Assembly (NCBI RefSeq): GCF_049243625.1
Contig: NZ_CP046975.1
DNA length: 32,000 bases
Reading direction: 5' to 3' (one strand)
Source of the DNA: Corynebacterium amycolatum
GTDB taxonomy: Bacteria; Actinomycetota; Actinomycetes; Mycobacteriales; Mycobacteriaceae
Shown here: positions 12,529-29,509 of the stretch, piece after piece
How positions within the stretch are numbered: the stretch's first letter is position 1
Layout of the letters: every line of letters starts with the position of its first letter
Made by a program: the position numbers and the translations under genes
The notes under the pieces: model-generated
The model's input: the letters and a program-made list of their open reading frames with translations, nothing else
Databases searched by the model: none
What the model was told of the DNA's origin: nothing

Positions 12529-12544
12529 GGTTACACAGGAAACT

Positions 12545-13612
12545 ATGACACAGACTACAAAGTCACTCAGCTTCCTAGATCGCTTCTTGCCGCTATGGAT
12601 TGCAGCTGCAATGGCAATTGGCCTCATTCTGGGCAAAATTGCACCGTCACTTGTGAACTGGCTGGCAGAGGCAAAAATTGCGACAATTTCCGTACCAATC
12701 GCCATCGGCTTGCTGGTCATGATGTACCCACCGCTCGCAAAGGTTCGATACGACAAAACGGGCAAAATTTTGACATCCAGGAAGCTGATGGGCATCACAG
12801 TCTTCCTCAATTGGATTCTCGGCCCCGCACTGATGTTCGCCCTTGCCTGGATATTCCTCAGTGATAGTCCAGAACTGCGCACTGGCGTGATCATCGTCGG
12901 TCTCGCCCGCTGCATTGCAATGGTTTTGGTCTGGAACGACCTATCTTGCGGCGATACTGAAGTCGCTGCCGTACTGGTGGCCGTAAACTCGCTATTTCAA
13001 ATTCTCATGTTCGGCGCTCTAGGGTGGTTCTACCTGCAGATTCTGCCCTCCTGGTTGGGACTGGAAACCACTTCCGCCACCTTTTCTTTTTGGGCAATCG
13101 CACTATCCGTAGTGGTATTCCTCGGTATTCCGCTTCTAGCTGGCGCAGCATCACGCATAATTGGTGAACGCACCCGTGGTCGCGACTGGTATGAAAATGA
13201 GTACTTGCCCAAAATCTCGCCATTGGCGCTTGCCGGCCTTCTATACACAATCGTGTTGCTCTTTGCGCTTCAGTCACAGCAGATTCTTGAGAATCCCTGG
13301 ACCGTTGCGAAAGTGGCGCTACCACTAGTGATCTACTTCCTCGCCATGTTCGCAATCGCTCTCACTTCGGCCAAGGCCGCGGGCATGAACTACGCAACCT
13401 CCGCATCGATTGCCTTTACGGCTGCCGGGAATAACTTCGAGTTGGCAATTGCGGTTGCGATTGGCACCTTCGGCCCATTGTCCCAGCAAGCACTTGCGGG
13501 AACGATTGGACCACTTATTGAAGTACCCGTACTCGTTGCACTTGTCTACGTCACCCGCTGGCTCGGGCCGCGCCTTTTCCCCAATGACCTTTCCGTACCG
13601 GACAAACTATAG
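12545..13612 (+). CDS. acr3: ACR3-family arsenite efflux permease
   Basis: The N-terminal LSFLDRFLPLWIAAAMAIGLILG and about 10 TM helices are typical of ACR3/ArsB(Acr3). The ATG at 12545 is preceded by AGGAA. It lies between arsR and arsC. Confidence 0.9.
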   Translation: MTQTTKSLSFLDRFLPLWIAAAMAIGLILGKIAPSLVNWLAEAKIATISVPIAIGLLVMMYPPLAKVRYDKTGKILTSRKLMGITVFLNWILGPALMFALAWIFLSDSPELRTGVIIVGLARCIAMVLVWNDLSCGDTEVAAVLVAVNSLFQILMFGALGWFYLQILPSWLGLETTSATFSFWAIALSVVVFLGIPLLAGAASRIIGERTRGRDWYENEYLPKISPLALAGLLYTIVLLFALQSQQILENPWTVAKVALPLVIYFLAMFAIALTSAKAAGMNYATSASIAFTAAGNNFELAIAVAIGTFGPLSQQALAGTIGPLIEVPVLVALVYVTRWLGPRLFPNDLSVPDKL

Positions 13613-13627
13613 AAAAAGGGTTCTGAA

Positions 13628-14056
13628 ATGAAGGAAATCCCGAAGGTACTTTTCATCTGCGTGGCAAATGCCGGTAAATCCCAGATGGCCGAGGCCATTG
13701 CGCGTGCAAAATATGCCACGCAGTTCACCGCCCTTTCAGCAGGAACGAACCCCAAAACTACTACCAATGCGCTTGCAGCCAAATCAGTTGCAGAAATCGG
13801 CGCCTCTATGGACGGTGCATCACCAAAGCCCATTGACTCCACGATTCTCCGGACTGCAGATCGTGTTGTCATCATCGGCGATGCCGCTCATGTAGAGCTC
13901 CCCTCGGACGCTCAAGGCTCACTCGAGCATTGGCTTACTGACGAGCCTTCAAAACGAGGCATCGACGGAGAAGAACGCATGGACCTGATTCGCGATGACC
14001 TCGAGCGCCGTATCGACAAGTTAGCTGTCGAACTCCGTTCCACTAAGAATCCCTAA
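13628..14056 (+). CDS. arsC: Arsenate reductase, LMW-PTPase fold, single-cysteine (mycothiol/mycoredoxin-dependent type)
   Basis: The P-loop is VLFICVANAGKSQMAEAI, with one catalytic Cys and no downstream Cys pair. This is the pattern I recall for C. glutamicum ArsC1/ArsC2 rather than the thioredoxin-coupled CTGNSCRS type. Confidence 0.8.
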   Translation: MKEIPKVLFICVANAGKSQMAEAIARAKYATQFTALSAGTNPKTTTNALAAKSVAEIGASMDGASPKPIDSTILRTADRVVIIGDAAHVELPSDAQGSLEHWLTDEPSKRGIDGEERMDLIRDDLERRIDKLAVELRSTKNP

Positions 14057-16861: not shown

Positions 16862-17141
16862 TCGTGCATGCGAGGAACTTAATAGTGACCGAAGCCACAA
16901 AATCTCTCGGTAACTGACGTACAATCGTGAGATAATCCTATGGTTTTATTCCAATTTTTCTAAGAATCGACGATTCGGTGAGGTCACACTTATCGGTGGC
17001 CTGGCTCTGTTGATTCCGCCAATGATCTGGCTGAAGAAATCGAAAGCCAAGACTTCGTAGAATTCTTTATGAAGGGGCGAAAAAAAGGAACGAGTCACTC
17101 CACATCCGCCCACATTTCGAGCCCACCGTGGGAGTCCAAGC

Positions 17142-17170
17142 CTGTCTGGCAGCTGTCTGTCAGCTGTCTG
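17142..17170. repeat. Three CTGTCTG motifs at 11-bp spacing (tandem CAGCTGTCTG units)
   Basis: The sequence is cCTGTCTGgcagCTGTCTGtcagCTGTCTGccc. It lies in an ORF-free region on the chromosomal side of the attachment site. Confidence 0.6.
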
Positions 17171-17479
17171 CCCACCGTTTTGCCAGTATTGCGCTCACTT
17201 ATCGATGCATGATTCACCCATCGATGCGCTCCAGCGTATCCATAAGTGAATAACTCATCGATATGTGAAACCGAAAGCTAGCAGCGCGTACATGAGCTGA
17301 GGCAAATCGGCCAGAATCAACCCAGCAACTCCTCAAGCTAAGTACCTTCAGGCCGACTAATCGAGCAGCGCCTCACGCTGCATTTTGACGACCGTCCTTC
17401 AATGCCCGGTTGTGAAGTGCGCGAGTTCGTCAGACCCAACGACTGCCCAACGGCTTAAGCCCCAAGCGGTGATTTGACC

Positions 17480-17524
17480 CCCGAATAACGAAGACCCCTA
17501 CCAGCGTTTACACCGGTAGGGGTC
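17480..17524 (-). terminator. Hairpin terminator following the displaced tRNA 3' fragment
   Basis: A 10-bp stem GACCCCTACC(17493-17502)/GGTAGGGGTC(17515-17524) is followed on the minus strand by TTCGTTATTCGG. It is homologous to the terminator at 29284-29328. Confidence 0.6.
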
Positions 17525-17530
17525 TCTTCT

Positions 17531-17570
17531 TAGTGGCGGGGGCTGGATTCGAACCAACGACCTCTGGGTT
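17531..17570 (-). repeat. Attachment-site direct repeat: displaced 3' half of tRNA-fMet (T-arm plus acceptor 3' strand, no 5' half)
   Basis: It aligns with 29337-29376 at an offset of 11,806 bp. The 14-bp block ACGACCTCTGGGTT is identical (17557-17570 and 29363-29376). The two internal mismatches (17544 and 17556) are compensatory in the T-stem, and the sequences diverge immediately at 17571. Confidence 0.85.
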
Positions 17571-17676
17571 CTCACCCTCATGTTCGAGCCACCTGCAGTT
17601 ATTGCCCTTTTACCTGCTGTTTAGAGAGGTATCAGTATACTGGCGCCTACTGGTCTTTACCGCAGATTACCGACTC

Positions 17677-18918
17677 TTAAGTCCCGTTTTGAGTCCCACT
17701 TTCTTCACCGAGATTCAAGGCGCCCCGCATAGCGTCTACATCAGTCCAATCCGTGTAGTTGCGCGCGTTCACGTCGACGTCATGCCCGAAATAGGCTGCA
17801 CGCACCTGGGCGGGTACCCCTCGCGCGATGGCCCGGTTATTGAGCACCGTGCGCCAGTCATGGGATCTCATTAAAGCGATGTGGTTGTCCTGGAGCTGCG
17901 CGCCAACATCTTTAAACAGAGCCGCTGACGCTTTCACGGCGTTGTCGGTGCGCCAGTGCGCCTTCTTGTCTCCTGGCGAAGGGATCAGTGGATCGGTCGT
18001 TTCTAGTCCGTCGAGCCGGTTTAACCAGAACTTTTCGACACGCTTGTCCAGGAACGGGATAGAACGGTCTCTGTGCGTTTTAGATTGCTCAGATGTAATG
18101 CTGATAGCGATCTGCCCATTAGCGACTTTTACAGAATACCTCGTCACTGCCAGTGCCTCGGAGATGCGAAGTCCCGTCCCCGCTTGCAGTAGTGCCAGCG
18201 CGACCACGTTGTCATGTTTTGCGATGGAGCTTGCTCGTCTGTCCGTGCCCGGTGGTAACGGTCTGGCGGTATCGCGTGCAATGAGATGGTCTACAACGGC
18301 GTCGTATTGGGCGTTCGTCAGGGCGTGACCACCTTGTGGTTTATTGCCCTTCTTGACCTCGCCGAGGTCGATGCTGATTCCGCGTAACGGGTTGTGGTCG
18401 ATAACACCCTCGCGGATGAGCTGATCCAGAATGTACTTGCTCACGACGGTGCGGGCCTGCCGTGCAGATTCCGACCCGTTTGCGGTGGCGATGGCCTGCA
18501 ATGCGTGTTCGAGAGTTCGGAATTTCACAGCTTCGCCAATGGCGTGTTTTCCTAGCTGTGCTTCGGCCTGCTTTAATGCGAGCTCATACCGGGCGCGCGT
18601 GTTCGGTCGCAGACGTGCCGCCCGGATGGCCGGCTTAGAGACGTCGGTAATGAACGCCGAGAAGTTCTTGCTCTTATCCCAATTGGTCGACGTCGAGTTG
18701 AGCTTGCTATCCCGCTTCTCGACGGCAATTCGCCGGAATTCCCCCTTTGTCCTTGCCCGGATTGTCGGGCGGTAAGTCGTTCCGTCCCATAGTCGGACCG
18801 TGATTTTCGCTTCGTATGGACCTCGCGGCGGTAAAGCATCAACGACGCGGTCGATGGAATCTTCCCCAAGGCTTAGTTTCGTTCTGGCGGCACGTATTTG
18901 CTTGGACATACACACCAC
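17677..18918 (-). CDS. int: Tyrosine-type site-specific recombinase (integrase)
   Basis: The C-terminal catalytic domain has R (GLRISEAL), H-x-x-R (SHDWRTV), FGHD and the nucleophile Tyr (NARNYTD). The N-terminal SAM-like domain has ARYELALKQAE. The start could be GTG 18918 or ATG 18909. It lies next to the att repeat. Confidence 0.9.
   Translation of the reverse strand: MVCMSKQIRAARTKLSLGEDSIDRVVDALPPRGPYEAKITVRLWDGTTYRPTIRARTKGEFRRIAVEKRDSKLNSTSTNWDKSKNFSAFITDVSKPAIRAARLRPNTRARYELALKQAEAQLGKHAIGEAVKFRTLEHALQAIATANGSESARQARTVVSKYILDQLIREGVIDHNPLRGISIDLGEVKKGNKPQGGHALTNAQYDAVVDHLIARDTARPLPPGTDRRASSIAKHDNVVALALLQAGTGLRISEALAVTRYSVKVANGQIAISITSEQSKTHRDRSIPFLDKRVEKFWLNRLDGLETTDPLIPSPGDKKAHWRTDNAVKASAALFKDVGAQLQDNHIALMRSHDWRTVLNNRAIARGVPAQVRAAYFGHDVDVNARNYTDWTDVDAMRGALNLGEESGTQNGT
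17680..17698. repeat. 19-nt repeat AGTCCCGTTTTGAGTCCCA (copy 1, overlaps the last int codons); candidate arm-type recombinase site
   Basis: It matches 29251-29269 at 18/19 positions. Each copy contains two AGTCCC half-sites 12 bp apart. The copies lie about 110 bp and about 94 bp from the two core copies, so they would flank the core in a circular attP. Confidence 0.6.
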
Positions 18919-18931
18919 TATAGACCCACTT

Positions 18932-18958
18932 TTGCAATAGGTTCGAATTTGTTATCAT
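18932..18958 (+). promoter_or_regulatory. Possible promoter (TTGCAA-N15-TATCAT) giving a leaderless transcript of the 161-aa ORF; divergent from int
   Basis: The -35-like hexamer is at 18932-18937 and the -10-like hexamer at 18953-18958. The ATG at 18966 is 7 nt downstream of the -10. The spacer is shorter than optimal. Confidence 0.3.
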
Positions 18959-18965
18959 TGCTGGT

Positions 18966-19451
18966 ATGGATCCTTCAGAACGTCTTCCAATTTGGTCTAC
19001 CGATGACGTCGCGCGCAGACGCCAGGAAGTGTTGTGCACGTTGGTTGACGATAATCACCCGCTTTATGTTGACGCTCGCGAATTGTTCACTCCCCCACTT
19101 TCCCGCGAGGAGGTCACACAGCTCTTGCTTACCGCCCTTGAAACCTACTGTGAAATCCGCGCGGTAGCTCGTGAACTAAGGTATCTGGACCCCATTGTGA
19201 AAAATGATACGAAAGGTCGTCAGAAGCGACACCCGCGTCTGCACGCTGTCCGCAAACACCTCCAGGCACGACTCGAGTTTCTGGAGAACGAAGCTGATCG
19301 AACGTTGCCGTTCACCTTTTATCGGCCTAACGCAGGACGACGCTTCGCCGCAGGTGAAGGACTGACGATGGATCTTATCGACCCTGTACCGGACAGTGTC
19401 GTGGCTACGATGTTTCCGCCGGTCTTTGATTTTCCCTCACAAGTAGGCTAA
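18966..19451 (+). CDS. Hypothetical protein (161 aa), element-encoded
   Basis: A clean ORF divergent from int. I recognise no motif. Confidence 0.55.
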   Translation: MDPSERLPIWSTDDVARRRQEVLCTLVDDNHPLYVDARELFTPPLSREEVTQLLLTALETYCEIRAVARELRYLDPIVKNDTKGRQKRHPRLHAVRKHLQARLEFLENEADRTLPFTFYRPNAGRRFAAGEGLTMDLIDPVPDSVVATMFPPVFDFPSQVG

Positions 19452-19534
19452 AATATAACCAGCCGTACCTGCGACGGTTGGCCACCGAGGCACCGGGTAC
19501 AATAAGAACCCAAGGTTTGCAACTCGGATATGCA

Positions 19535-19568
19535 GGCCCCCAAAGCGGATAACCGCTAGGCCGGGGCC
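19535..19568 (+). other. Nested GC-rich hairpin (GGCCCC..GCGG-ATAA-CCGC..GGGGCC) between the 161-aa ORF and xis
   Basis: The complementary arms were read directly. The following T-run is weak (CTTTC), so a terminator function is uncertain. Confidence 0.3.
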
Positions 19569-19592
19569 CTTTCAGCATGTCTGGAGCAAACC

Positions 19593-19820
19593 TTGAAAGG
19601 TGTTTCTAATTTAAAACTGGTCGATCATGCCGAGCCTATTGCGGTTAAAAGTTCGGTAGCGGCATCCCTGATCGGAATTGCCCCTCAAACTCTCAACAAC
19701 TGGCGTGTTCAGGGCAAAGGGCCCAGATACGCCAGCGTGGGTACCAACCTCGTCGTCTACAGAATCGCTGATATTGAGGCGTGGCTAGATGAGCATGTTG
19801 TCGGTGGTGAGAAGCCATGA
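19593..19820 (+). CDS. xis: Excisionase / AlpA-type helix-turn-helix DNA-binding protein
   Basis: The 75-aa protein carries AASLIGIAPQTLNNWRVQGKGPRYASVGTNLVVYRIADIEAWL, an HTH_17/MerR-like excisionase pattern. The TTG start is preceded by GGAG. Its stop overlaps the PolB start (ATGA at 19817-19820). Confidence 0.75.
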   Translation: MKGVSNLKLVDHAEPIAVKSSVAASLIGIAPQTLNNWRVQGKGPRYASVGTNLVVYRIADIEAWLDEHVVGGEKP

Positions 19821-22800
19821 CGACAGCGAACGAGGCGTGGAGCATAGAGATCTCCCCCAAGGACGCGCCCGACACGGTGCGTCATGAGCATGAACTCATC
19901 GAGCTTGACGTGAATGGCACCGAGTGGCAATCACGCCTCGTCGACACTGCCGTCGACGTTCCTGGGCGTTCTGACCCGTCGTACTTCACCGTTTTGGTAC
20001 GTCGTAAACCTCGATCTGTGGCTAAGGTCTCGGAGACCTTGGCCACGATTTCAGGCAGTTCTACGGACGTTCCTGCTGGTCAAGACCCTAAAGTCGTTTC
20101 AGGCCAAAATCCCCTAGGGGAGAGGCAGAATGGCCGGACCGGAGAGTCCGGCCATCGTGACTCCGGCCACCGTGACTCCGCAGCAGCAGCAGCGGTGGAA
20201 GCCGCTGCGGTTGCAGGGGTTGATGCCGGTGTCGATGTTAAGAGTTTCGGCCAGCTACCAACTGTGAGGTCGATGGGTAGTGGCGGTCGCCGGGCTCAAG
20301 TGATCGGGTTTGATACTGAGTTCACCTACCGCGAAGATGACCCCGCTAAGCGCGTCATCGATAGCTATCAGTTCGCCTGTACTGATGCTCTCGATGATGG
20401 TGTTCTCGTACAGGTGGTTGTGTTGCCTCTGGCGGGTGATCGCATCTACCTTGAGGATGCTCTCTACATCGTCAGTCTTGCAGGCGGTCTGCATGTCCTG
20501 TCACCCTCTCGGGAGCCTATCGATCCTCGTGGCGTGCTCGTCCGCGATGTAAGGAAACTCAACCCTCGGGGAAAATTTGACTACTCCGCCACGCGAGATG
20601 CGGCGTTCAAGGCTCGCATTGCCGTCGTCCTGGCGTGTCATTTCGGCAACGCCGATCTGACCGCTTTTCGGCGCCCTCCCGAGCAGCGCAATGGTGGGGA
20701 AAAACATTATGACATCCTCCGCCGCGTGACCTCTGCTTCGGGGGGCTTAGTTTCGCTGCAACCTGCCCGCTTCATGCGCAAGTCTGGCAAAGGCTCCAAC
20801 AGCTATCGCTGGTTGCCGTTCTCTGTGACCGTTCGTGACACGATGTGTCAGGCTGCACCCGGTCATAAGAGTCTCGCTGCTCTTGGCGATGTTTGCGGTG
20901 TTCCTAAGCTTGATGTTGGTTCCTCAATCGAGAATATGACCTCAATGCGTCGTGACGATCTGACGTCGTTCCTCGAATATGGGGTGAATGACGCGGTCAT
21001 CGTTGTTGAGTATCTGGCGATGCTGTGGGGTCTCAACATCGTTCCGCCTGTCACCCTTTCGGGTGCGGGTGCCAGTGCTGTCCGCGACGGAATCATGCGC
21101 TACATGGGCGACAAGGTGGTGAAGGACTTCCTCATCAACTTTCGCGGTCTCGTGCGGTTGACGGACCCTGAACCGTTTTTAGACCATGACCAACTTTCGT
21201 ATTACACCACACGAGAGTTGGTACCCGTGGACGGCGATGCCAATCAATCCCACACTGCGTGGAAAATGGCGTTTCACGGAGGCTGGAACAGTTGTCTGTC
21301 TCCTGGTCACCACCCTTACCCGACCTTCGATCACGATATCCAATCTGCGTACCCATCTGCGATGGCATCGGTGATTGATGTGGATTATGTGGGCGGTTGT
21401 ATCGAGGAGGTTGTGAAGGACCGGGTACTTACACTGGACGACTTTCCGTTAGGTCCCATCACCCCGTTAGTTGCCTATGTGAGTTGGAATTTCCCGGATG
21501 ATGTTGTTGCGCCTTGCTTGCCGGTGGTCGTCGGTGACTGCGTGTTATATCCACGAACGTCTGACGGTGCTGGAGCCGCGCAAGGTGACGATGTTGGGGG
21601 GTATGACGGGTTTCATGGTGCTTGGTGCGCTGGACCTGAGTTGTACCTTGCGTTGAAGCTGGGGGCGACGGTGCGTGTTCAGATTGGCTACCGCATGAGG
21701 TTGCGCATGCAGTCTGATAGTACTCCGTCCCGATCACTGCGCTTCGCCCTCCGACAGATGGTTGAAGACCGTGCGACTGCGAAGAAGATCTTCGGCAAGG
21801 GGTCGCTGGAAGAGCAGACCGTCAAGGTTGCGACAAACTCGGTCTACGGGAAGCTGGCCCAGGACGTCTCCGAGCGTAACGGGTGGGGTGCATGGGCTGA
21901 GGAGATGGAGTCTATTGGTGGGTCGTCCGTAACCTCTCCCTATCACGCGTCGATGACAACGTCGCTTGTTCGCGCTCTTCTTCTGGCGATGGCCAATACG
22001 ATTCCGATTCTGTCTGTCACGACTGACGGCTTCATCACGCCTGTTGAAGAGATTGAGCACTTTGATTGCTTTGGCATCGCGAATGTGTTCCGTGCCGCTC
22101 GTCGTGCGTTGGTAGGTGATCCGACGGTCTGGGAGATCAAGCACTACCAGGACGATCTAGTGAATTTCTCGACGCGTGGCAATGTGTCCTTGCTGGAACA
22201 CGGTGTGCTCGCTAAGGCTGGGTTGAAAGTTCCTGAGGAGGTTGAACGTGGGACCGTCGCGGAGCGTCGCTGGTTTCGCGATACCGCTCTTTCACGCCGG
22301 GGAAAGATACCTAACCCCTACACGTCTTTCCCAACATTTCGGGAGTTGTCGCGGTCCGTAAACCGGTTGGACTTCCACCCGGTGGATCGCACGCCTGAGG
22401 TCTCAACGGTGGACTTTGACCTAAAACGGCAGCCTCTACGTGGCACGCTCCGGGTTGATGTGATTGACGGCAACGAAATGGCGGGGTTCGACACTTGCGC
22501 GTGGGACTCAGTCGACGACTATAAGCATGCACGTGGGATCGCTGGTCACATGCAGTTGGTTCGGTATGGGACCACAGGTGTTGACCGTCCTACTGGGTGT
22601 CTGCGCACGGGTCATGATTGGGAGACCTGGTTTAAGCGTTTTGAGTCTGCTCGGGGTCGTCGTATCCGTACGGCTGACAGTGCCCTACTCACCGAACTCG
22701 TTGCCGCGCATAAGGCTGGTCTTGTCGTCGTTGACCGTTTGGCTGTTCGCGTTTCCGTGGCTCAGAAGGTGGGTTGGTTGTCCTCTTTGGGGATGGGTGA

Positions 22801-22927
22801 ATTCACCCGGGCGCAGTGGGATCACATGAGCAAGAAGGTTCGGCGTTCGACGGTGCTACGCGATGCCGATATGGATGCTGTTCGTGCCTTTGCCGATGAG
22901 CTGAATCGCGGTGATGGCTATGTCTAG
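19817..22927 (+). CDS. Family-B DNA polymerase with 3'-5' exonuclease domain, piPolB-like (primer-independent PolB candidate)
   Basis: ExoI is IGFDTEF (aa 163-169), ExoII is HFGNADLTAF (275-284) and ExoIII is EYGVNDAVIV (387-396). Motif A is DIQSAYPSAM (507-516), motif B is KVATNSVYGK (670-679) and motif C is the variant TTDG (735-738). These are followed by KHY (775-777) and STRG (785-788). Confidence 0.85.
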   Translation: MTTANEAWSIEISPKDAPDTVRHEHELIELDVNGTEWQSRLVDTAVDVPGRSDPSYFTVLVRRKPRSVAKVSETLATISGSSTDVPAGQDPKVVSGQNPLGERQNGRTGESGHRDSGHRDSAAAAAVEAAAVAGVDAGVDVKSFGQLPTVRSMGSGGRRAQVIGFDTEFTYREDDPAKRVIDSYQFACTDALDDGVLVQVVVLPLAGDRIYLEDALYIVSLAGGLHVLSPSREPIDPRGVLVRDVRKLNPRGKFDYSATRDAAFKARIAVVLACHFGNADLTAFRRPPEQRNGGEKHYDILRRVTSASGGLVSLQPARFMRKSGKGSNSYRWLPFSVTVRDTMCQAAPGHKSLAALGDVCGVPKLDVGSSIENMTSMRRDDLTSFLEYGVNDAVIVVEYLAMLWGLNIVPPVTLSGAGASAVRDGIMRYMGDKVVKDFLINFRGLVRLTDPEPFLDHDQLSYYTTRELVPVDGDANQSHTAWKMAFHGGWNSCLSPGHHPYPTFDHDIQSAYPSAMASVIDVDYVGGCIEEVVKDRVLTLDDFPLGPITPLVAYVSWNFPDDVVAPCLPVVVGDCVLYPRTSDGAGAAQGDDVGGYDGFHGAWCAGPELYLALKLGATVRVQIGYRMRLRMQSDSTPSRSLRFALRQMVEDRATAKKIFGKGSLEEQTVKVATNSVYGKLAQDVSERNGWGAWAEEMESIGGSSVTSPYHASMTTSLVRALLLAMANTIPILSVTTDGFITPVEEIEHFDCFGIANVFRAARRALVGDPTVWEIKHYQDDLVNFSTRGNVSLLEHGVLAKAGLKVPEEVERGTVAERRWFRDTALSRRGKIPNPYTSFPTFRELSRSVNRLDFHPVDRTPEVSTVDFDLKRQPLRGTLRVDVIDGNEMAGFDTCAWDSVDDYKHARGIAGHMQLVRYGTTGVDRPTGCLRTGHDWETWFKRFESARGRRIRTADSALLTELVAAHKAGLVVVDRLAVRVSVAQKVGWLSSLGMGEFTRAQWDHMSKKVRRSTVLRDADMDAVRAFADELNRGDGYV
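20147..20193 (+). repeat. Tandem 15-bp repeat (TCCGGCCAYCGTGAC x2) followed by (GCA)4 inside the PolB N-terminal extension
   Basis: Read directly. It encodes SGHRD-SGHRD-SAAAA in a low-complexity linker. Confidence 0.8.
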
Positions 22928-23042
22928 CACCCCTCCCCCTGGTCGGTTTGGTATGAAGCTTTCTCGCGGCCCTCCTATAGGCACTTTTATCGTCACAGAG
23001 ACGCTAACCATGCAAGCAACAGCACCCCAGCTAAGTCTTGAA

Positions 23043-23073
23043 CCATCGGGTGCTTAGACCGAGTTCCCGATGG
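23043..23073 (+). other. Hairpin CCATCGGG-N15-CCCGATGG downstream of the PolB gene
   Basis: An 8-bp perfect inverted repeat with no T-run. Function is unknown. Confidence 0.3.
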
Positions 23074-23109
23074 CACCAATACACCGCAACCCAAGATAAG
23101 GAGGAACAT

Positions 23110-23583
23110 ATGGAGCCACAATCGCCCCGAGCACCACGGATGCCGAGCGCCCCACGAGCGCCGCGCAGTGGAGCTAAAACAGGCGCGGAAATGGAGGAGA
23201 GCAGGTACGCCGCGGAGGAGTCTGCGAAGGGGCTTATCGCCGGTTTGGTTGGTCTAGACCGCGCCGATATTATCCGTCGTTCCAACCGAGTCCAGGAGAT
23301 TCTGGACGATTTTGCCCAGCACGCCCCAAAAGAAGAAGTGTCTTTGGAGCAGCTTAAAGCGGAGGGAGAAAAGGTTGACGCTGAGCTTGATCAGCTAGAG
23401 CAAACCCTCGATGAGCGCGCTCAGTCGCGGCGGAAAAAGCAGAATCAAGGTGGCTACCCACCGCAGCCGCCGCGGGAAAAGAAGCCTCGTGTCCCTCGGG
23501 TCAAAAACCCGCGATTCACCCCACTTTTCCAGAATGAACCAGAAGAAAAAGACACCAGTAAAGGATGGGAACCAGAACTATGA
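23110..23583 (+). CDS. Hypothetical protein (157 aa), Pro/Arg-rich N-terminus and coiled-coil centre
   Basis: The ATG at 23110 lies 5 nt after AGGAGG (23099-23104). The product contains LEQLKAEGEKVDAELDQLEQTLDERAQ. I recognise no family. Confidence 0.6.
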   Translation: MEPQSPRAPRMPSAPRAPRSGAKTGAEMEESRYAAEESAKGLIAGLVGLDRADIIRRSNRVQEILDDFAQHAPKEEVSLEQLKAEGEKVDAELDQLEQTLDERAQSRRKKQNQGGYPPQPPREKKPRVPRVKNPRFTPLFQNEPEEKDTSKGWEPEL

Positions 23584-23957
23584 TTACGAAGTCTCAGACC
23601 GCTTCGTCGGTAAAAAAGATTGAAGCTCTCCGCCAGGAGCGGGAGCAAAAAGAAGCCGAAGAAGCCAAGAAGGTTGAGGAGTTTAAGCGTCAATTAGGCG
23701 AAGTTCTCTACGCCTGCGCTTATGAGCCTTCAAGCAAGTGGTCCAAATTTCGCGGCGGTTCCGTAAGGGAACTGTTCGCAGAAATCGGTATACGGGAGGA
23801 AACCTCCTGTGAAGCGTCCGAGGAACACGAGAGCGCACATCGCGGGGCGGACGAAGGAGCCGATAAAGGCTTCGAAGTCGATTCCGAGGACTCTACAGAG
23901 TCAGAGGAATCCCCCGCAGGCCCGGAGCACGCAGACCCTTATGGTCTGCAAGCGTAG
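23580..23957 (+). CDS. Hypothetical acidic protein (125 aa)
   Basis: The ATG at 23580 overlaps the upstream stop (ATGA), which suggests translational coupling. The N-terminus is a charged helix and the C-terminus is acidic and disordered. Confidence 0.55.
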   Translation: MITKSQTASSVKKIEALRQEREQKEAEEAKKVEEFKRQLGEVLYACAYEPSSKWSKFRGGSVRELFAEIGIREETSCEASEEHESAHRGADEGADKGFEVDSEDSTESEESPAGPEHADPYGLQA

Positions 23958-23968
23958 GGCCAGAGGGT

Positions 23969-23989
23969 CGAGGGAGAGAATCTCCCTCG
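23969..23989 (+). other. Perfect 9-bp stem / 3-nt loop hairpin (CGAGGGAGA-GAA-TCTCCCTCG)
   Basis: Read directly, 12 nt after the stop of the 125-aa ORF. There is no T-run. It could be a terminator or part of a structured oriT/origin region. Confidence 0.4.
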
Positions 23990-24030
23990 CCAGCGCCACG
24001 AGGCACCGGAGGTGCCCGAGTGGCTTGCTG

Positions 24031-24070
24031 GCCGCCTGTTTGCCGCCTGCCGCCTGTTTGCCGCCTGTTT
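24031..24070. repeat. Tandem 11-nt repeats GCCGCCTGTTT (3 full copies plus one 7-nt partial), iteron-like
   Basis: The full copies are at 24031-24041, 24049-24059 and 24060-24070, and the partial GCCGCCT is at 24042-24048. Confidence 0.85.
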
Positions 24071-24101
24071 GTGAGGGCCGTCTTTGACGGTGGCGAGTAC
24101 G

Positions 24102-24126
24102 CCTGAATCTGCCCCGCAGATTCAGG
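24102..24126. other. Perfect 11-bp inverted repeat CCTGAATCTGC-CCC-GCAGATTCAGG; candidate oriT hairpin
   Basis: Read directly. It lies about 105 bp upstream of mobC and the relaxase, the usual position of an oriT recognition hairpin. Confidence 0.5.
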
Positions 24127-24232
24127 GGGCCGACACCGGAGAAGCGTGACCCTTACAAACAGACTGTGGCCCTGGCTGCATCAGCAGTCGGGGCCACCCT
24201 GCCACAGTAAGCACGATAAGTAGGAGGTGGAT

Positions 24233-24595
24233 ATGCGAGACAAGTTCTCGACATATTCGCGTACAACCGTGCGCCTCGATAAGGATTTAGACCGATTTGT
24301 CGAGGAGGTCGCACGGGTCGTAGGGGTGCAAAAGGCCGTCGTGTTCCGGGAAGCTCTCTATGTCCTCGCGGAGGAGGAGAGCGTGCTGACGCAAAAGCGT
24401 TTGGCCCCGGACACGCTGCGCCGCCTGGACGAGATGAACGACCAACTGCGGCGGATTGGCGTCAATCTAAACCAGTTGGCTCGCCGCGCGAATATCGACG
24501 GCGTGGCCCCCGTGTCTGAGGCTGTAGAAAGCATTGGCTCCGAGGTTTCTTCTCTTCGCAAAGAGGTGAAGGACTTTGTCCACAATCAAGATTAA
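24233..24595 (+). CDS. mobC: MobC-family relaxosome accessory protein
   Basis: The C-terminal motif LRRIGVNLNQLARRAN is the MobC-family signature. The N-terminal region looks like an RHH fold. The ATG at 24233 lies 5 nt after AGGAGG (24222-24227). Confidence 0.8.
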   Translation: MRDKFSTYSRTTVRLDKDLDRFVEEVARVVGVQKAVVFREALYVLAEEESVLTQKRLAPDTLRRLDEMNDQLRRIGVNLNQLARRANIDGVAPVSEAVESIGSEVSSLRKEVKDFVHNQD

Positions 24596-26186
24596 CTACA
24601 GCCAGAATATCCGCGCGGCAACGGTCTACGCCGTCTATGGAACGGCAGACAATGCCCGCAAGGGTGAGGTGCGAGCCGATGCTTTATGCACGGTTCAACC
24701 TAACGCTGAATCGTTTTCTCCGGAGGCTACGGCTGGCCGTTGGTCGGGTGTGGACTTCATGGAAGCCAGTGTGGAAGAAATGGAGCGATATGCTCCGGCT
24801 CAGCGCACTGACGAAGCAATTATTTATATCCAATCGTGGGCTAAAGACGAGCTGGATAAGGATAACCCGGCCGATGTAGCTCGGGCTAATGCGGCTGGCT
24901 CAGAGCTGGCGATGCGGCTGACGCAGGGCACGGGAGTTCCGTTTACCGTGGCTACGCACACCGACAGTAAAAGCGGCTGTGTCCACAACCATATCGTCTT
25001 TGCCAACCACGATACGCAGACAAAGAAGGCTGCACCTCGGGATATGCGCAACTGGTACAAGCTGCGCAATATCAACGACGAGCTGATGCGCGATTTGGGG
25101 ATGCGTGTCCTGGAGCGAGAGCCGGAAATATCGCTGCTTCCTGCTGAGCGCAGGGCACGCAAGGAGGGCAAGTCCACAGACTCGACGGGCCTGGGCGTGG
25201 ATGAGCTGACCGCAGCCACGTGGGCTGATTTTGCCCGCAAGCGCATGGATGAGCTGTGCGCGGATAAACAGGTGGCAGATGCTGACGACCCACTGGCGAA
25301 GGCAGTAGAGATTGCTGGCAAATACAACCTGTCTCTAAAAGTGCAGCCCAACTCAAAAACCGAGGGTGAGTCGCTAACCGTGGCCCTGGTCGACGACGAC
25401 GGCGAGGATGCCTACTTCACGAACACCACGAAGGCCGGACGTACTCGAAAGCGTAAAGCAGCTAAAGCTGGCTCAAAATTGGGCCGCAGCTACTCGCTAG
25501 AGGGTGTGACCGAACGCGTTAACGAGGCCCAATCAGCCCTTCTTGCGCGGCAGCTTGCAGCACTTCAAGCCAATTCAACCGATGACGACCTGGAGGCGAA
25601 ATACGGCTCCAGCCTTCTCGATGACGAGGAGGAAGAAAACTATAACAACCAGGAGGTATTCAATCATGGTGTCAGTGACCGAGATGACGAAGCTAGCCCA
25701 AGCAGCGGCGAAAGGCAAGATGGACAGCGTCTTGAAGGTTCTCAGCCCACGCCTGGACAAGGCGGAGAAGGCTATCAAGACGCTGCAGGAGAAACTGAAG
25801 AGTCTGCCGGAGAATACAGGGGACATTCTCAGTTCTCTGCCCAGCGACTTCTCGACGAGGTTGACGCAAGCGGAAAGCGAATTAAGGAACGTAAAAAGCA
25901 ATCTCGCCGCAAACAAGAACTACGTGAGCAGCAGTCACTTCCAAGTAACGATGATGGAAGTGCAGCAGATGATCACCGGGCTGATAAGGAACATCGAGGA
26001 TCTGCCCAACGGCCTGGAGGGGGTAAAAGGGTACCTAATCGAGATAAGCGAGCAGATGTCGCGTCTGACAAGGATGCAACAGCTGGTACTCAAAGCAGCC
26101 GAAAGCCCCATCCATCTCGACAAGGATTCCAGCCAAGCAGTAGCCCAGAGCCTGAACGCTCAGATGACTTCGAGCCTGACTTCTAG
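24576..26186 (+). CDS. Relaxase/mobilisation nuclease (MobA/VirD2-type) with a long disordered C-terminal tail
   Basis: The His-triad motif is HTDSKSGCVHNHIVFANHD. N-terminal Tyr candidates lie in AATVYAVYG. The TTG start overlaps the mobC 3' end by 20 nt. The last 521 nt or so overlap the next gene in another frame. Confidence 0.8.
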   Translation: MSTIKINYSQNIRAATVYAVYGTADNARKGEVRADALCTVQPNAESFSPEATAGRWSGVDFMEASVEEMERYAPAQRTDEAIIYIQSWAKDELDKDNPADVARANAAGSELAMRLTQGTGVPFTVATHTDSKSGCVHNHIVFANHDTQTKKAAPRDMRNWYKLRNINDELMRDLGMRVLEREPEISLLPAERRARKEGKSTDSTGLGVDELTAATWADFARKRMDELCADKQVADADDPLAKAVEIAGKYNLSLKVQPNSKTEGESLTVALVDDDGEDAYFTNTTKAGRTRKRKAAKAGSKLGRSYSLEGVTERVNEAQSALLARQLAALQANSTDDDLEAKYGSSLLDDEEEENYNNQEVFNHGVSDRDDEASPSSGERQDGQRLEGSQPTPGQGGEGYQDAAGETEESAGEYRGHSQFSAQRLLDEVDASGKRIKERKKQSRRKQELREQQSLPSNDDGSAADDHRADKEHRGSAQRPGGGKRVPNRDKRADVASDKDATAGTQSSRKPHPSRQGFQPSSSPEPERSDDFEPDF

Positions 26187-26700
26187 CCTGGAACCGCTGG
26201 TAGAAGTAGCTGTATCTGAGGCAATGTCGAAAGAGTCCGAAAGCCTGCACAAGGCAGCAGAAGCATCTAAGAAGGCTCGCAGCGCCCTGCTCCAGGAGAA
26301 GGAGTCCAACGAAAAGCTGCTGGAGAAGATACGTGCAGAGCGCAAAAAGTACAACGACGACATGGAAAAGTCGAACACGAACTTTATTAAGGCCTGCATG
26401 TCTGCCTCGTGGATTGCAGCCAGTGTTCTCTTCGTTGCTATCGCACTCGTTGCTGTCGGAGCCTTGGGGAACGGGCTGCTAAGTATGCTCGGCATACCCG
26501 ACGGCGTGTCTGCCTTGTGGGGTCACGTCCAGGAGGCCAACGGCATCGGCCCAACACTGGGCTGGTTGGCGTTAACACTTATCGTCATAGGGGTTCTTAT
26601 AGCGCTTATGACCTGGATGTTGTCCCAGGCTGCGCCGGGTATTGCTCACTTAGTCGAGGAATACCGTCGCAATCACCCGAGGAAAGAAACGAACCACTAA
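25666..26700 (+). CDS. Coiled-coil protein with C-terminal transmembrane helices (344 aa), out-of-frame overlap with the relaxase 3' region
   Basis: The ATG at 25666 lies 9 nt after AGGAGG (25651-25656). A long heptad-like N-terminal region is followed by two hydrophobic helices (WIAASVLFVAIALVAVGALG and LGWLALTLIVIGVLIALMTWML). Confidence 0.7.
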   Translation: MVSVTEMTKLAQAAAKGKMDSVLKVLSPRLDKAEKAIKTLQEKLKSLPENTGDILSSLPSDFSTRLTQAESELRNVKSNLAANKNYVSSSHFQVTMMEVQQMITGLIRNIEDLPNGLEGVKGYLIEISEQMSRLTRMQQLVLKAAESPIHLDKDSSQAVAQSLNAQMTSSLTSSLEPLVEVAVSEAMSKESESLHKAAEASKKARSALLQEKESNEKLLEKIRAERKKYNDDMEKSNTNFIKACMSASWIAASVLFVAIALVAVGALGNGLLSMLGIPDGVSALWGHVQEANGIGPTLGWLALTLIVIGVLIALMTWMLSQAAPGIAHLVEEYRRNHPRKETNH

Positions 26701-26742
26701 CTAGAACACGTGCACCGTAAAAAGTAAAAATCCCCACAACAC

Positions 26743-26772
26743 AGCGTAGCGGTTAACCGCTACGCTTCTTTT
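26743..26772 (+). terminator. Rho-independent terminator after the mobilisation module
   Basis: A perfect 10-bp stem AGCGTAGCGG/CCGCTACGCT with loop TTAA is followed by TCTTTTA. Confidence 0.8.
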
Positions 26773-26805
26773 ATGCTCTTCCTATGCCCCAACTTTGCAA
26801 CAGCA

Positions 26806-26842
26806 CCAATAAACTGGCGCCCCGGTTATAAGTTGGGGCGCC
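26806..26842 (-). terminator. Candidate terminator of the SulP gene
   Basis: An 8-bp GC stem GGCGCCCC(26816-26823)/GGGGCGCC(26835-26842) is followed on the minus strand by AGTTTATT. Confidence 0.45.
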
Positions 26843-26869
26843 AAGTCGATGTGCTCGAGTCGGGGGATG

Positions 26870-28429
26870 TTAGTGGCCGGTGCCAAGCCGGCCAGACAGG
26901 CGGTTCAGCCGGTCCTGACTGGGACCGTCGAGCCCGATAATGGACACGGTTTTGCCTCTGTCCTGGAACTTCTGCGTAATCGCGTCAAAGGTCGCGACCG
27001 TGGAGGCATCCCAGATCTCCGCCTCAGTGAGATCAATAGTGATATGACGGGCAGAATCGGTGTAATCAAAGCGATAAACCAGGTCATTGCTTGATGCCCA
27101 AAACAACTGGCCATGCACCCGGTAGGTACGAGTATCAATCTCGCCATCGCCGTCGCCGTCGATCTCGGAGACCTTTTCAATGGAAGCGATATGTGCCATC
27201 CGACGGGCGAACATGATCATCGCGGTGACCACACCCAACACCACACCAATGGCCAGGTTGCTGGTGGCTAGGGTGGCAATAATCGTCACGGCCATAACAA
27301 TGGTCTCAGAGACCGGCATGAGTTTAAGGGTGCGTGGATGCACCGAGTGCCAGTCGATGGTGCCGACCGAGACCATGATCATGATTGCCACCAGCGCAGC
27401 CATCGGGATCATGCCAACGATGTCGCCCAGTGCCAGGACCAGGACCAGCAGGAACACACCGGCTAACAGGGTGGATAGGCGGGTACGTGCCCCGGATTCG
27501 CGGACGTTGATCATGGTTTGACCGATCATCGCGCAGCCACCCATGCCGCCGAAGAAACCGGAGGCAATATTAGCCACCCCCTGTCCCCAGGATTCACGAG
27601 TTTTATCGGAATGAGTGTCGGTGATGTCATCGACGAGCTTGGCGGTCATCAACGATTCCATGAGACCGACCACGGCCATGGCCAGGGCATAAGGCGCGAT
27701 GATCTGCAGGGTCTCCAACGTCCACGGCACGTTCGGAATAAACAGGGACGGTAAGGTCTCCGGCATCTTGCCCATGTCCGAGACCGTCGGGACAGTCAAA
27801 CCGGCGGCAATGACCAAACCGGTGAGCACGATAATCGTGACCAGCGGGGCGGGGATCACACTGGTGAGCTTGGGGAAGAAAATCATGATCACCACACCCA
27901 AGCCGACGAGTGGGTAGACTATCCAAGGCACATCAATGAGGTGTTCGAGTTGGGCGGTGAAAATCATAATGCCCAGTGCATTGACGAAACCCAGCATCAC
28001 CGATCGGGGGATAAAACGCTGAAGTTTCGCCACACCGAGGGCGCCGAGCACGATTTGTAGGACACCGCCCAACAGGACGGTGGCGATGAAATAATCCATC
28101 CCGTAACCACGCGCCACAGGAGCAATGACTAGGGCAATAGCCCCGGTGGCGCCGGTGATCATTGCCGAGCGGCCACCGGTAAAGGCGATCGCAATGGCCA
28201 TGACTACCGAGGAAAACAGACCCATGGCTGGGTCAACACCGGCAAGGATGGAAAAGGCAATGGCCTCAGGGATCAGCGCCAGGGATACCGCCAGTCCGGC
28301 CAGAATCTCTATACGGATACGGGCGGGGGAAGAAAATGCGTAACGGAAGGATGCGATGATCCCGGTAGGGGCATCAGCGCCGTCTGGACTCAGGAGGGGG
28401 CGGGGGGCCGCCGTGCTAGTTTCAGTCAT
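26870..28429 (-). CDS. SulP-family inorganic anion transporter with C-terminal STAS domain
   Basis: The 519-aa protein has a polytopic N-terminal domain (AFSILAGVDPAMGLFSS, GQGVANIASGFFGGMGGCAMIGQTMIN) and a STAS-like tail (YRVHGQLFWASSNDL...IDLTEAEIWDASTVATFDAI). Confidence 0.9.
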   Translation of the reverse strand: MTETSTAAPRPLLSPDGADAPTGIIASFRYAFSSPARIRIEILAGLAVSLALIPEAIAFSILAGVDPAMGLFSSVVMAIAIAFTGGRSAMITGATGAIALVIAPVARGYGMDYFIATVLLGGVLQIVLGALGVAKLQRFIPRSVMLGFVNALGIMIFTAQLEHLIDVPWIVYPLVGLGVVIMIFFPKLTSVIPAPLVTIIVLTGLVIAAGLTVPTVSDMGKMPETLPSLFIPNVPWTLETLQIIAPYALAMAVVGLMESLMTAKLVDDITDTHSDKTRESWGQGVANIASGFFGGMGGCAMIGQTMINVRESGARTRLSTLLAGVFLLVLVLALGDIVGMIPMAALVAIMIMVSVGTIDWHSVHPRTLKLMPVSETIVMAVTIIATLATSNLAIGVVLGVVTAMIMFARRMAHIASIEKVSEIDGDGDGEIDTRTYRVHGQLFWASSNDLVYRFDYTDSARHITIDLTEAEIWDASTVATFDAITQKFQDRGKTVSIIGLDGPSQDRLNRLSGRLGTGH

Positions 28430-28481
28430 AGATGTCCAATCTTTGAGGGGATAGGTAACTGGGCGAACGCCCGAAAGGAAT

Positions 28482-28508
28482 CCAACCCTCTAGTAACTTT
28501 AGGTTTGG
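28482..28508. promoter_or_regulatory. Candidate MerR-type operator: 27-bp imperfect dyad CCAACCCTCTAGT-A-ACTTTAGGTTTGG
   Basis: 10 of 13 positions are complementary. It lies in the SulP/MerR divergent intergenic region. A second 12-bp perfect palindrome, GGGCGAACGCCC, is at 28461-28472. Confidence 0.4.
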
Positions 28509-28598
28509 TGATGGTGGTCATGGTAGCGGGAGTTTTACTCAACCGCCAACCCAGGCACAGGAACCCGTGGGCAACATCACCGTGAAGGAGAACAGGCA

Positions 28599-29003
28599 AT
28601 GCAAAACAGTAATTTCAAGATCGGCGAGGTCGTTGACCAGACGGGGTTGTCGATTCCCACCTTGCGTTATTATGACAACGTCGGCCTGATTACCCCATCG
28701 GGGCGTAGCCCTGGTGGGTTCAGGCTTTATAGTGAGGCTGATGTACGTCGTGTTTTGCTGGTGCGACGGATGAAACCGCTGGGGTTTACTCTGGATCAGA
28801 TGCGGGAATTCCTGGAAGCTGCGGAGATTCTTCATAGTTCAGATGGCGGGCAGGACAGTGATACCGCACAGCAGGCACGGAGTAATGCCAAGGCCACCCT
28901 TGCCGACATTCGTGAGGAGACGCGCACCCGCTACGAAAAGCTACGCAAGCAAATTGCCTACGCTGAGGAATTCCTCGATCTGGTCAACACCCTGGCACCC
29001 TAA
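28599..29003 (+). CDS. MerR-family transcriptional regulator
   Basis: The N-terminal HTH is FKIGEVVDQTGLSIPTLRYYDNVGLITPSGRSPGGFRLY, followed by a dimerisation helix. The gene is divergent from the SulP gene. Confidence 0.85.
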   Translation: MQNSNFKIGEVVDQTGLSIPTLRYYDNVGLITPSGRSPGGFRLYSEADVRRVLLVRRMKPLGFTLDQMREFLEAAEILHSSDGGQDSDTAQQARSNAKATLADIREETRTRYEKLRKQIAYAEEFLDLVNTLAP

Positions 29004-29193
29004 ACTGCCCCCATCCTTCGCAGGGAGAAAAAGACCATCGTATTGAATGCGCTCTGTCGAATCGCGTTCCAGATGAAGTGGACGAACGCCCGCGGCCTCT
29101 CCGGAGTGGATGGCGATAGTACAGAGGACTTCTGAAATCCGTGCAGACGACTCCTCAAAACGACACAGTCATCCAAGGTCACAAAATCGAAAA

Positions 29194-29236
29194 TTGTCAC
29201 TTAACCCCATCACTTCCAAACCGGCTTAAGTGACAA
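29194..29236. repeat. Perfect 11-bp inverted repeat TTGTCACTTAA-N21-TTAAGTGACAA near the right end of the element
   Basis: Read directly. An extra GTCAC word lies at 29178. The repeat sits in the non-coding arm between merR and the att core. Confidence 0.7.
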
Positions 29237-29250
29237 AATGCCATCGCTAA

Positions 29251-29269
29251 AGTCCCGATTTGAGTCCCA
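29251..29269. repeat. 19-nt repeat AGTCCCGATTTGAGTCCCA (copy 2); candidate arm-type recombinase site
   Basis: It matches 17680-17698 at 18/19 positions. Confidence 0.6.
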
Positions 29270-29283
29270 GGACGTGCGCCTTA

Positions 29284-29328
29284 AGAGAAATAACTAAAGC
29301 CCCTACCAGTGTTTCTCCTGGTAGGGGC
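29284..29328 (-). terminator. Rho-independent terminator of tRNA-fMet (element-supplied)
   Basis: An 11-bp stem GCCCCTACCAG(29299-29309)/CTGGTAGGGGC(29318-29328) is followed on the minus strand by TTTAGTTATTTCTCTT. Confidence 0.75.
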
Positions 29329-29336
29329 TTGGAAGT

Positions 29337-29413
29337 TGGTAGCGGGGGCAGGATTCGAACCTACGACCTCTGGGTTATGAGCCCAGCGAGCTACCGAGCT
29401 GCTCCACCCCGCG
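29337..29413 (-). tRNA. Initiator tRNA-fMet (anticodon CAU), chimeric: its 3' part is supplied by the integrated element
   Basis: The minus strand reads CGCGGGGTGGAGCAGCTCGGTAGCTCGCTGGGCTCATAACCCAGAGGTCGTAGGTTCGAATCCTGCCCCCGCTACCA (77 nt). It has a 1:72 C-U mismatch, three consecutive G:C pairs closing the anticodon stem, a CAU anticodon (plus-strand ATG at 29377-29379) and an encoded CCA. Confidence 0.9.
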
Positions 29414-29509
29414 TCAACTGTCCTGGCTTTTACAAGCACTCACAGCGGGTGCTGACCTCTCCGGCCAACGAGATGTAACTGTAGCACGGCACCCCCAACA
29501 AAGACCAAT

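Follow-up and report, generated by a model that had tools for sequence, protein, structure and literature searches.

Among the family-B DNA polymerases (PolBs), only the primer-independent ones (piPolBs) are known to begin a DNA chain with no primer at hand, a property put to use in amplifying whole genomes primer-free; no piPolB other than that of Escherichia coli is known to have been characterised. They form a third family-B branch, related to the protein-primed polymerases (pPolBs), and the E. coli member starts chains de novo. The subject here is a gene for a protein of this kind, WP_235191266.1, in a 32,000-nucleotide stretch of Corynebacterium amycolatum DNA (RefSeq assembly GCF_049243625.1, contig NZ_CP046975.1; "the window" denotes this whole stretch). 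The gene lies within an 11.8-kb element (window ~17530-29383) at the 3' end of a tRNA-Met gene, and very probably it encodes a piPolB that serves as the replication gene of an integrative mobilisable pipolin inserted at this tRNA-Met.

The piPolBs have been defined by SxTTDG instead of YxDTDS, by KH-X8-KTRG instead of KxY, and by insertions at TPR1 and TPR2; the Actinobacteria belong to one of their two main groups (PMC5695915). The piPolB of E. coli pipolins (3-373-03_S1_C2 type) has its ExoI-III, A and B motifs in the same order as the window protein, together with SVTTDG and KH-X8-xTRG, and the gene order integrase, helix-turn-helix (HTH) gene, piPolB is common to both elements; it differs in carrying K623 where the window protein has a serine. 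An extra N-terminal domain and a disordered linker account for most of the 170 residues by which the window protein exceeds it in length, and E. coli pipolins usually lack a relaxase, unlike the window element. In Staphylococcus epidermidis, plasmid pSE-12228-03, a plasmid-pipolin according to the literature, carries a piPolB of 1109 amino acids (aa), with a relaxase downstream as in the window; this polymerase differs in its KTRG and 9-residue spacer, and the pipolin is plasmid-borne, with a serine recombinase and without a tyrosine integrase or tRNA site.

The pipolins of Actinomycetota were described with a tyrosine recombinase (IntTn916 class in the tRNA pipolins), a tRNA site with direct repeats, a relaxase in the "IME-pipolins" (IME, integrative mobilisable element), and a bimodular organisation of core and cargo (PMC11551731). 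The window element resembles them in recombinase, tRNA repeats, relaxase, small size and core plus cargo; its cargo consists of a sulfate permease and a MerR regulator, in contrast to the defence systems of the published pipolins. The main text of that study names neither C. amycolatum nor C. tuberculostearicum; yet actinobacterial and Corynebacterium pipolins as such are already published, and the genome finding adds nothing categorically new. The best structural match is with the phi29 DNA polymerase and other pPolBs, with insertions at the TPR1 and TPR2 positions in the model of the window protein. The phi29 enzyme nevertheless has no detectable sequence similarity, shows DTD and KxY where the window protein has TTD and KH...STRG, and continues for only ~75 residues past the palm strand, compared to 250 in the window protein; pPolB systems also possess a terminal protein and a linear genome, whereas the window element has neither a recognisable terminal protein nor terminal inverted repeats.

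Polymerase motifs and family membership

The gene and its motifs, with the evidence for their placement, are as follows; the main alignment comprises 40 homologues that share 43-85% identity.

19817-22927, + strand: piPolB gene (WP_235191266.1), 1036 aa, ATG start
20309-20323, + strand: ExoI, FDTEF (D166, E168); translation of the open reading frame (ORF) and 40-sequence alignment
20639-20668, + strand: ExoII, HFGNADLTAF (H275, A279, D280); alignment
20978-20992, + strand: ExoIII, YGVND (Y388, D392); alignments, pairing with the E. coli and phi29 motifs
21329-21355, + strand: motif A, DHDIQSAYP (D505, D507; D507, at nt 21335, equals E. coli D368); alignment and BLASTP
21824-21853, + strand: motif B, KVATNSVYGK (K670); alignment, BLASTP and PHROG
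22013-22030, + strand: motif C, SVTTDG (residues 733-738; TTDG at 22019-22030), with T735 replacing the first Asp and D737 catalytic
22139-22180, + strand: KH-X8-STRG (KH at 22139, STRG at 22169-22180; K775, H776, S785, T786, R787, G788)

All acidic residues of ExoI-III are present, as expected of a piPolB, and the two polymerase motifs, A (Dx2SxYP-like) and B (Kx3NSxYG), vary little or not at all. The canonical pPolB signatures YxDTDS and KxY are absent from the window protein; SVTTDG, with Thr for the first Asp of DTDS, and the extended KH...STRG motif occur instead. SxTTDG is carried by 230 of 265 relatives, and the spacer of the KH...xTRG motif measures eight residues in 208 of 211. Residues D166, E168, D280, Y388, D392, D505, D507, K670 and Y677 are invariant across the 40 homologues, and so are G678, K679, S733, T735, T736, D737, G738, K775, H776, T786 and R787; because of this invariance, the alignment indicates that the gene is real and under selection, and that the conservation of its motifs is not due to chance. 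A pseudogene or decayed polymerase was also considered and is ruled out, every catalytic residue being invariant in the alignment. The start codon overlaps the stop codon of an upstream 75-aa HTH gene as ATGA (19817-19820), an arrangement that is a common sign of co-translation.

Public entries are of limited help: WP_235191266.1 is listed as "hypothetical protein [Corynebacterium]", and UniRef gives "DNA-directed DNA polymerase, Corynebacterium amycolatum". Whole-protein searches against Pfam and NCBIfam, and against PDB sequences (phmmer and hmmsearch, including a profile search), returned nothing usable, and a PHROG "DNA polymerase" model matched only the region from motif B to motif C (E=6e-7); with no Pfam, NCBIfam or PDB sequence match, the family assignment was therefore drawn from homologues and the literature. 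A word-seeded protein search found 145 relatives, all organism-named matches being actinobacterial, and a profile search among 1.84 billion cluster representatives found 1892 at E<=1e-3 and 694 at E<=1e-30; most of the best 150 of these 1892 matches extend to about position 985 of 996. By tblastn against species-representative genomes, relatives occur in many Actinomycetota and, at 24-35% identity, in Lachnospiraceae and other Clostridia, Vibrio, Photobacterium, Psychromonas, Bradyrhizobium, Rhizobiales, Polaromonas and Verrucomicrobia.

The sequence-only reading of this DNA had suggested alignment with characterised piPolBs and with phi29. The best plasmid match was the piPolB of S. epidermidis pSE-12228-03, aligned by BLASTP over residues 335-908 (E=4e-40, 27% identity), and the E. 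coli piPolB aligned over query residues 347-938 and subject residues 208-758 (E=2e-33, 26% identity). The E. coli sequence used was the 866-aa WP_053266087.1 of strain RM14721, found via the published PCR screening primer (pipolin locus NZ_CP027105.1, 2747607-2755630), in which D59/E61, D368, K613/H614 and K623/R625 stand at exactly the published positions (PMC5695915). The alignment pairs D507 with D368, SVTTDG with SVTTDG, K775 with K613, H776 with H614, S785 with K623 and R787 with R625, and it runs ~150 residues beyond the TRG strand, through VDFDLKRQPLR/LEFDFKRQPVR and CLRTGHDWETW/TLKTLADWDDW. Against the phi29 DNA polymerase sequence, hhalign with the 40-sequence profile aligned ExoIII alone, at a probability of 6%. 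The E. coli enzyme was not reached by blastn with a Vibrio piPolB gene, and a Vibrio-seeded protein search gave no E. coli protein among the 120 matches listed of 141. Of 5426 complete E. coli genomes, 294 (5.4%) contain a match to the screening primer, in the chromosome every time, and several of these annotate the piPolB gene merely as "hypothetical protein".

By its sequence, the window protein is thus a member of the already described piPolB group, and the sequence-only reading, which had called a 1036-aa family-B polymerase at 19817-22927, is supported in its identification; the protein represents a fresh example within the described piPolB/pipolin kind. The ORF is present, the motifs are conserved in the homologues, and they lie where they had been placed, save for ExoI: FDTEF begins at 20309, and the start at 20303 had taken in two extra codons. 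The exonuclease residues named as D165 and E167 are D166 and E168 in ORF numbering; D737 was numbered correctly as the catalytic Asp of the polymerase, and the concern that catalytic Asp residues could be misaligned or absent is answered by the alignment, in which all are matched and invariant. The TTD motif C with a K/H...KTRG region had been given as the mark of primer-independent PolBs, in agreement with the published definition (PMC5695915), except that the window protein reads STRG and not KTRG.

Predicted fold and the terminal regions

The AlphaFold2 model, computed from the 40-sequence alignment (mean predicted local distance difference test, pLDDT, 82; predicted template modelling score, pTM, 0.79), has four parts: an N-terminal domain, a disordered linker, the exonuclease and polymerase domains, and a confidently folded C-terminal part. 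The regions outside the catalytic domains are located as follows.

19829-20017, + strand: small folded N-terminal domain, residues 5-67 (model, pLDDT ~90; in part of the family only)
20021-20239, + strand: disordered low-complexity linker, residues 69-141 (model, pLDDT <30)
20147-20180, + strand: 15-nt tandem repeat TCCGGCCACCGTGAC x2.3, encoding SGHRD-SGHRD in the linker (repeat scan)
22184-22924, + strand: C-terminal region, residues 790-1036, beta-rich at first and then a helical bundle (model, homology)

In a Foldseek comparison with the PDB, phi29 DNA polymerase ranked first (2pzs_B, E=4e-11, target TM score 0.58), and archaeal, eukaryotic and herpesvirus PolBs ranked lower (target TM 0.20-0.34). 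Among predicted viral structures, target TM was mostly 0.5-0.58 for the top matches (adenoviruses lower) and ~0.2-0.3 for the herpesvirus, poxvirus and giant-virus polymerases listed. These top matches came from His1, two actinophage tectiviruses, ABV2, adenoviruses, Clostridium podophages and bidnaviruses, nearly all of them viruses that use protein priming. Taking both comparisons together, the nearest structures belong to pPolBs that carry TPR insertions (target TM 0.55-0.58), and RNA-primed PolBs reach 0.2-0.35. The model thus predicts a phi29-type PolB fold, in which a 121-residue insertion between motif A and two finger helices occupies the TPR1 position, and a beta-hairpin (residues 687-700) directly after motif B occupies the TPR2 position.

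The sequence-only reading had set apart an N-terminal extension with a low-complexity SGHRD-SGHRD linker and ~245 C-terminal residues as matching nothing recognisable. The linker is indeed present, and both the N-terminal domain and the linker are variable, many relatives matching only from about profile position 100-115; the SGHRD tandem repeat is missing from the closest homologue (82% overall), and linker length therefore varies between strains. Such variability is no novelty, since piPolBs with "non-conserved N-terminal domains" were already depicted in 2017 (PMC5695915).

The C-terminal region has no counterpart in Pfam, NCBIfam or the PDB, but it is not a private extension of this protein. 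BLASTP shows its homology to the S. epidermidis piPolB up to residue 908 and to the E. coli piPolB up to residue 938, tblastn matches in Vibrio, Bradyrhizobium and Clostridia carry on as far as about residue 1000-1014, and distant profile matches reach the end; judged from these alignments, the C-terminal ~250 residues are a module of the whole piPolB family. Modelled alone, the last 247 residues were predicted with a pLDDT of 84, and Foldseek found no match for this model in the PDB (best E=1.5). Assigning this region to an HTH, a terminal-protein-like bundle or another known domain is therefore unsupported. A speculative and rather improbable idea is that the module (790-1036) would enable a phi29-like polymerase to start de novo, for instance by holding template and initiating nucleotide in cis; the replacement of a conserved Lys by Thr or Ser in the TRG strand, discussed below, would then be a second way, used by the Gram-positive branch, to stabilise the first dinucleotide. 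Terminal proteins and primase accessory domains do such holding in trans.

The integrated element, its core and its cargo

The element and its flank on the tRNA side are composed as follows.

17530-17577, no strand: left direct repeat (attachment site, att), a diverged copy of the tRNA-Met 3' half, 85% identity
17677-18918, - strand: tyrosine recombinase (integrase), 413 aa (Pfam PF00589, E=3e-8)
18966-19451, + strand: ORF161, of unknown function, conserved with the element (no family match)
19593-19820, + strand: HTH_17/excisionase-like small DNA-binding protein, 75 aa (Pfam PF12728, E=2.9e-5; PHROG 66 excisionase, E=5.8e-7)
23110-23957, + strand: two small ORFs, function unknown, which encode 157 and 125 aa and overlap by 23580-23583 (no family match)
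24031-24071, no strand: tandem repeat GCCGCCTGTTT/TGCCGCC in a hairpin-rich region upstream of mobC (repeat scan; intergenic 23960-24230)
24233-24595, + strand: MobC-type relaxosome accessory protein (Pfam PF05713, E=1e-8)
24576-26186, + strand: MobA/VirD2-type relaxase, 536 aa (Pfam PF03432, E=9e-13)
26164-26700, + strand: ORF178, last core gene, possibly a membrane protein (weak DUF2207_C-like match below the Pfam cut-off)
26870-28429, - strand: SulP sulfate permease, putative cargo (family match)
28599-29003, + strand: MerR regulator, putative cargo (family match)
29337-29413, - strand: tRNA-Met (CAT), its 3' half forming the right direct repeat 29336-29383 (ARAGORN)
29614-31953, - strand: UPF0182 gene, flank (family match)

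A piPolB, a recombinase, direct repeats that overlap a tRNA gene and a relaxase are found together here, and virus structural genes are absent; the element is of the IME-pipolin type already described for Actinomycetota. A near-identical copy of its 9.25-kb core (17530-26779) exists in C. tuberculostearicum and in C. sp. HMSC04H06, at 96% identity and between different flanks, and homology with the C. sp. HMSC04H06 element begins exactly at 17530. After ORF178, these relatives carry an RNase T-like exonuclease and insertion sequence fragments, which in C. tuberculostearicum are IS240-type DDE, IstB and rve, and not SulP and MerR (window 26780-29336 compared with positions 16932-23108 of locus L008). 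SulP and MerR, inside the repeats and outside the shared core, are hence putative variable cargo, although a chromosomal origin was also weighed. Because the core is 96% identical in different flanks, the comparison of sequences shows a conserved core with a variable cargo module and recent movement between species. No defence system was recognisable in the C. amycolatum copy, a dedicated PADLOC search not having been made. One C. kroppenstedtii genome has a related piPolB, truncated and accompanied by an integrase and a relaxase, next to the same tRNA-Met/UPF0182 pair. The element is chromosomally integrated in several genomes, and a relaxase follows the piPolB in 27 actinobacterial loci, usually starting ~0.5-1.5 kb past the polymerase gene, as well as on the staphylococcal plasmid pSE-12228-03.

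The 48-nt direct repeat (17530-17577 and 29336-29383) reproduces the 3' part of the tRNA as far back as the anticodon loop, and the similarity continues, weaker, across a terminator-like hairpin (17484-17577 and 29290-29383). The left copy differs from the tRNA-Met 3' half at 7 of 48 positions, including a compensatory exchange in the T-stem (A-T to T-A), GAG for CAT in the anticodon loop and CTA for CCA at the 3' end, and the changes in the duplicated downstream hairpin preserve stem pairing; the left copy of C. sp. HMSC04H06 is 100% identical to the window's true tRNA-Met half. The tRNA-Met has a C1-U72 mismatch atop its acceptor stem, and its anticodon stem is closed by three G-C pairs; these features mark the bacterial initiator tRNA. 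ARAGORN gives only Met/CAT, and the element may sit at an initiator tRNA-fMet gene. Just inside the element ends, a 36-nt direct repeat, 78% identical and with the core AAGTCCCGnTTTGAGTCCCA, occurs at 17663-17698 and 29234-29269; it is out of register with the tRNA repeat, and its copies may be arm-type binding sites of the integrase. The intergenic region 23960-24230 is a candidate origin of transfer (oriT) or replication origin; the near-identical elements differ in their number of GCCGCCTGTTT/TGCCGCC units (~4 in the window, 1 in SRR2889779, 2 in HMSC04H06), and this region upstream of mobC coincides with an assembly gap in a JGI metagenome.

Inverted repeats of at least 20 nt were not found within 17400-29500, and a linear element bounded by terminal inverted repeats was on this ground ruled out. 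Pfam and PHROG scans of the element proteins found no primase or terminal-protein-like family; PHROG matches were confined to DNA polymerase and excisionase/DNA-binding families and one marginal tail tape-measure match of ORF178, which at E=0.0057 was treated as noise. The chromosomal flank on the far side of the integrase contains an arsenic-resistance cluster (window 12134-14056).

12134-12472, - strand: ArsR-type HTH protein, chromosomal flank
12509-13612: ACR3/SBF-family transporter, chromosomal flank
13628-14056: ArsC arsenate-mycothiol transferase, chromosomal flank

De novo initiation and its alternatives

As an IME-pipolin, the element would be excised as a circle by the tyrosine integrase and the HTH/excisionase-like protein, recombining the tRNA-derived repeats. 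The piPolB would then replicate the circle without a separate primase, since the element encodes none; it would proofread in the 3'-5' direction with D166/E168, D280 and Y388/D392, polymerise with D507, K670/Y677 and D737, and engage K775, H776 and R787 of the KH...TRG strand, which in the E. coli piPolB is needed for priming and primer-end stabilisation (PMC5695915). Through MobC and the relaxase, the element would become movable by a conjugative system present in the same cell, and it would then reintegrate at tRNA-Met. Catalysis, primer independence, excision, episomal replication and transfer are here inferred from E. coli biochemistry and general knowledge of integrative mobilisable elements.

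The first residue of the TRG strand deserves particular attention. In the window protein it is Ser785, so that the Lys of the published motif is missing (PMC5695915). In the set of 265 proteins gathered with the window protein as seed, which centres on Actinobacteria and Clostridia, Thr or Ser takes this position in 216 of the 234 motif-bearing proteins (TTRG 182, STRG 22, STRA 9, CTRG 9, TTRA 3, KTRG 1). In the Vibrio-seeded set, Lys occupies it in 102 and Arg in 5 of 107 motif-bearing proteins among the 120 listed of 141 (KTRA 66, KTRG 36, RTRG 5), and the S. epidermidis piPolB carries KTRG. The accessible texts contain no mention, as far as we found, of this difference between Thr/Ser and Lys. 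It was treated as apparently branch-specific, and not as family-defining, because the authors who defined the piPolBs place the Actinobacteria/Firmicutes group within them (PMC5695915); with K775, H776 and R787 invariant, the chemistry of the window enzyme is expected to be the same as that of the E. coli piPolB.

Several observations weigh against a simple transfer of the E. coli model to this element. Template-dependent synthesis without a primer has been demonstrated for the E. coli piPolB only (PMC5695915), and the accessible literature yielded no biochemically tested actinobacterial piPolB. With Thr or Ser at the K623 position in 216 of 234 proteins, the behaviour of the enzyme could differ from that of its E. 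coli relative, and Ser785 is the main reason why primer independence is not to be taken for granted. The insertions that are candidates for TPR1 and TPR2 come from a predicted model and are judged by their positions in it. With an identity of only 85% between the left att and the tRNA, the window copy may excise poorly, and the three small ORFs of unknown function may encode accessory replication factors.

The most serious alternative, which we consider unlikely, accepts the protein as a true piPolB but holds that the Actinobacteria/Clostridia branch with [T/S]TRG is weakly or not at all primer-independent, and starts from host primase products, a relaxase nick or transcripts. The E. coli K623A mutant, impaired in primer extension and primer elongation (PMC5695915), carries its substitution at the very position of S785, the contrast between the window-seeded and Vibrio-seeded sets falls on the same residue, and the relaxase linked to the piPolB in the 27 actinobacterial loci could supply a 3'-OH by nicking. 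On the other hand, K775 (equivalent to K613, the loss of which specifically lowered priming in E. coli), H776 and R787 are invariant, the element is without a primase, and the conservation of Thr/Ser suggests a functional alternative to Lys rather than decay.

Much less probable is a protein-primed system: a linear element, plasmid- or virus-like, whose pPolB uses a terminal protein encoded in one of the small ORFs. The nearest structures are indeed those of phi29 DNA polymerase and further viral pPolBs, and ORF161, ORF157 and ORF125 have no known function; yet no piPolB-named structure occurred among the PDB matches, so pPolBs would rank nearest in any case. The protein lacks DTDS and KxY and has the piPolB-specific SxTTDG and KH...TRG, it is directly similar to the E. 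coli and S. epidermidis piPolBs and not detectably so to phi29 (hhalign 6%) or PDB chains, and the element combines direct tRNA repeats and an integrase with chromosomal integration in several genomes and no terminal inverted repeats. The sequence-only reading had itself named a terminal-protein gene as the finding that would speak against primer independence; family scans recognised none in the element, and the small ORFs of unknown function remain. A role mainly in translesion synthesis or repair, or in complementary-strand fill-in after conjugative transfer of single-stranded DNA, rather than in episome replication, appears similarly remote: E. coli piPolB translesion activity is tied to the same K613 (PMC5695915), and in Actinobacteria and Staphylococcus the piPolB and relaxase genes show tight linkage, but such a role is compatible with element replication, and nothing in the window bears on it directly.

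A piPolB that replicates an integrative mobilisable pipolin is therefore the reading retained for the C. amycolatum gene. The Corynebacterium enzyme comes from the other main piPolB branch than the E. coli enzyme, has a natural Ser where the K623A substitution impaired the latter, and has a well-predicted structure; its compact element is clearly moving between human skin corynebacteria. Two points seem worth keeping, the Thr/Ser-for-Lys replacement in the Gram-positive-centred set and the family-wide C-terminal module without a known structural relative. The enzyme would make a reasonable second model piPolB, naturally suited to testing what de novo initiation requires in the way of residues and domains.

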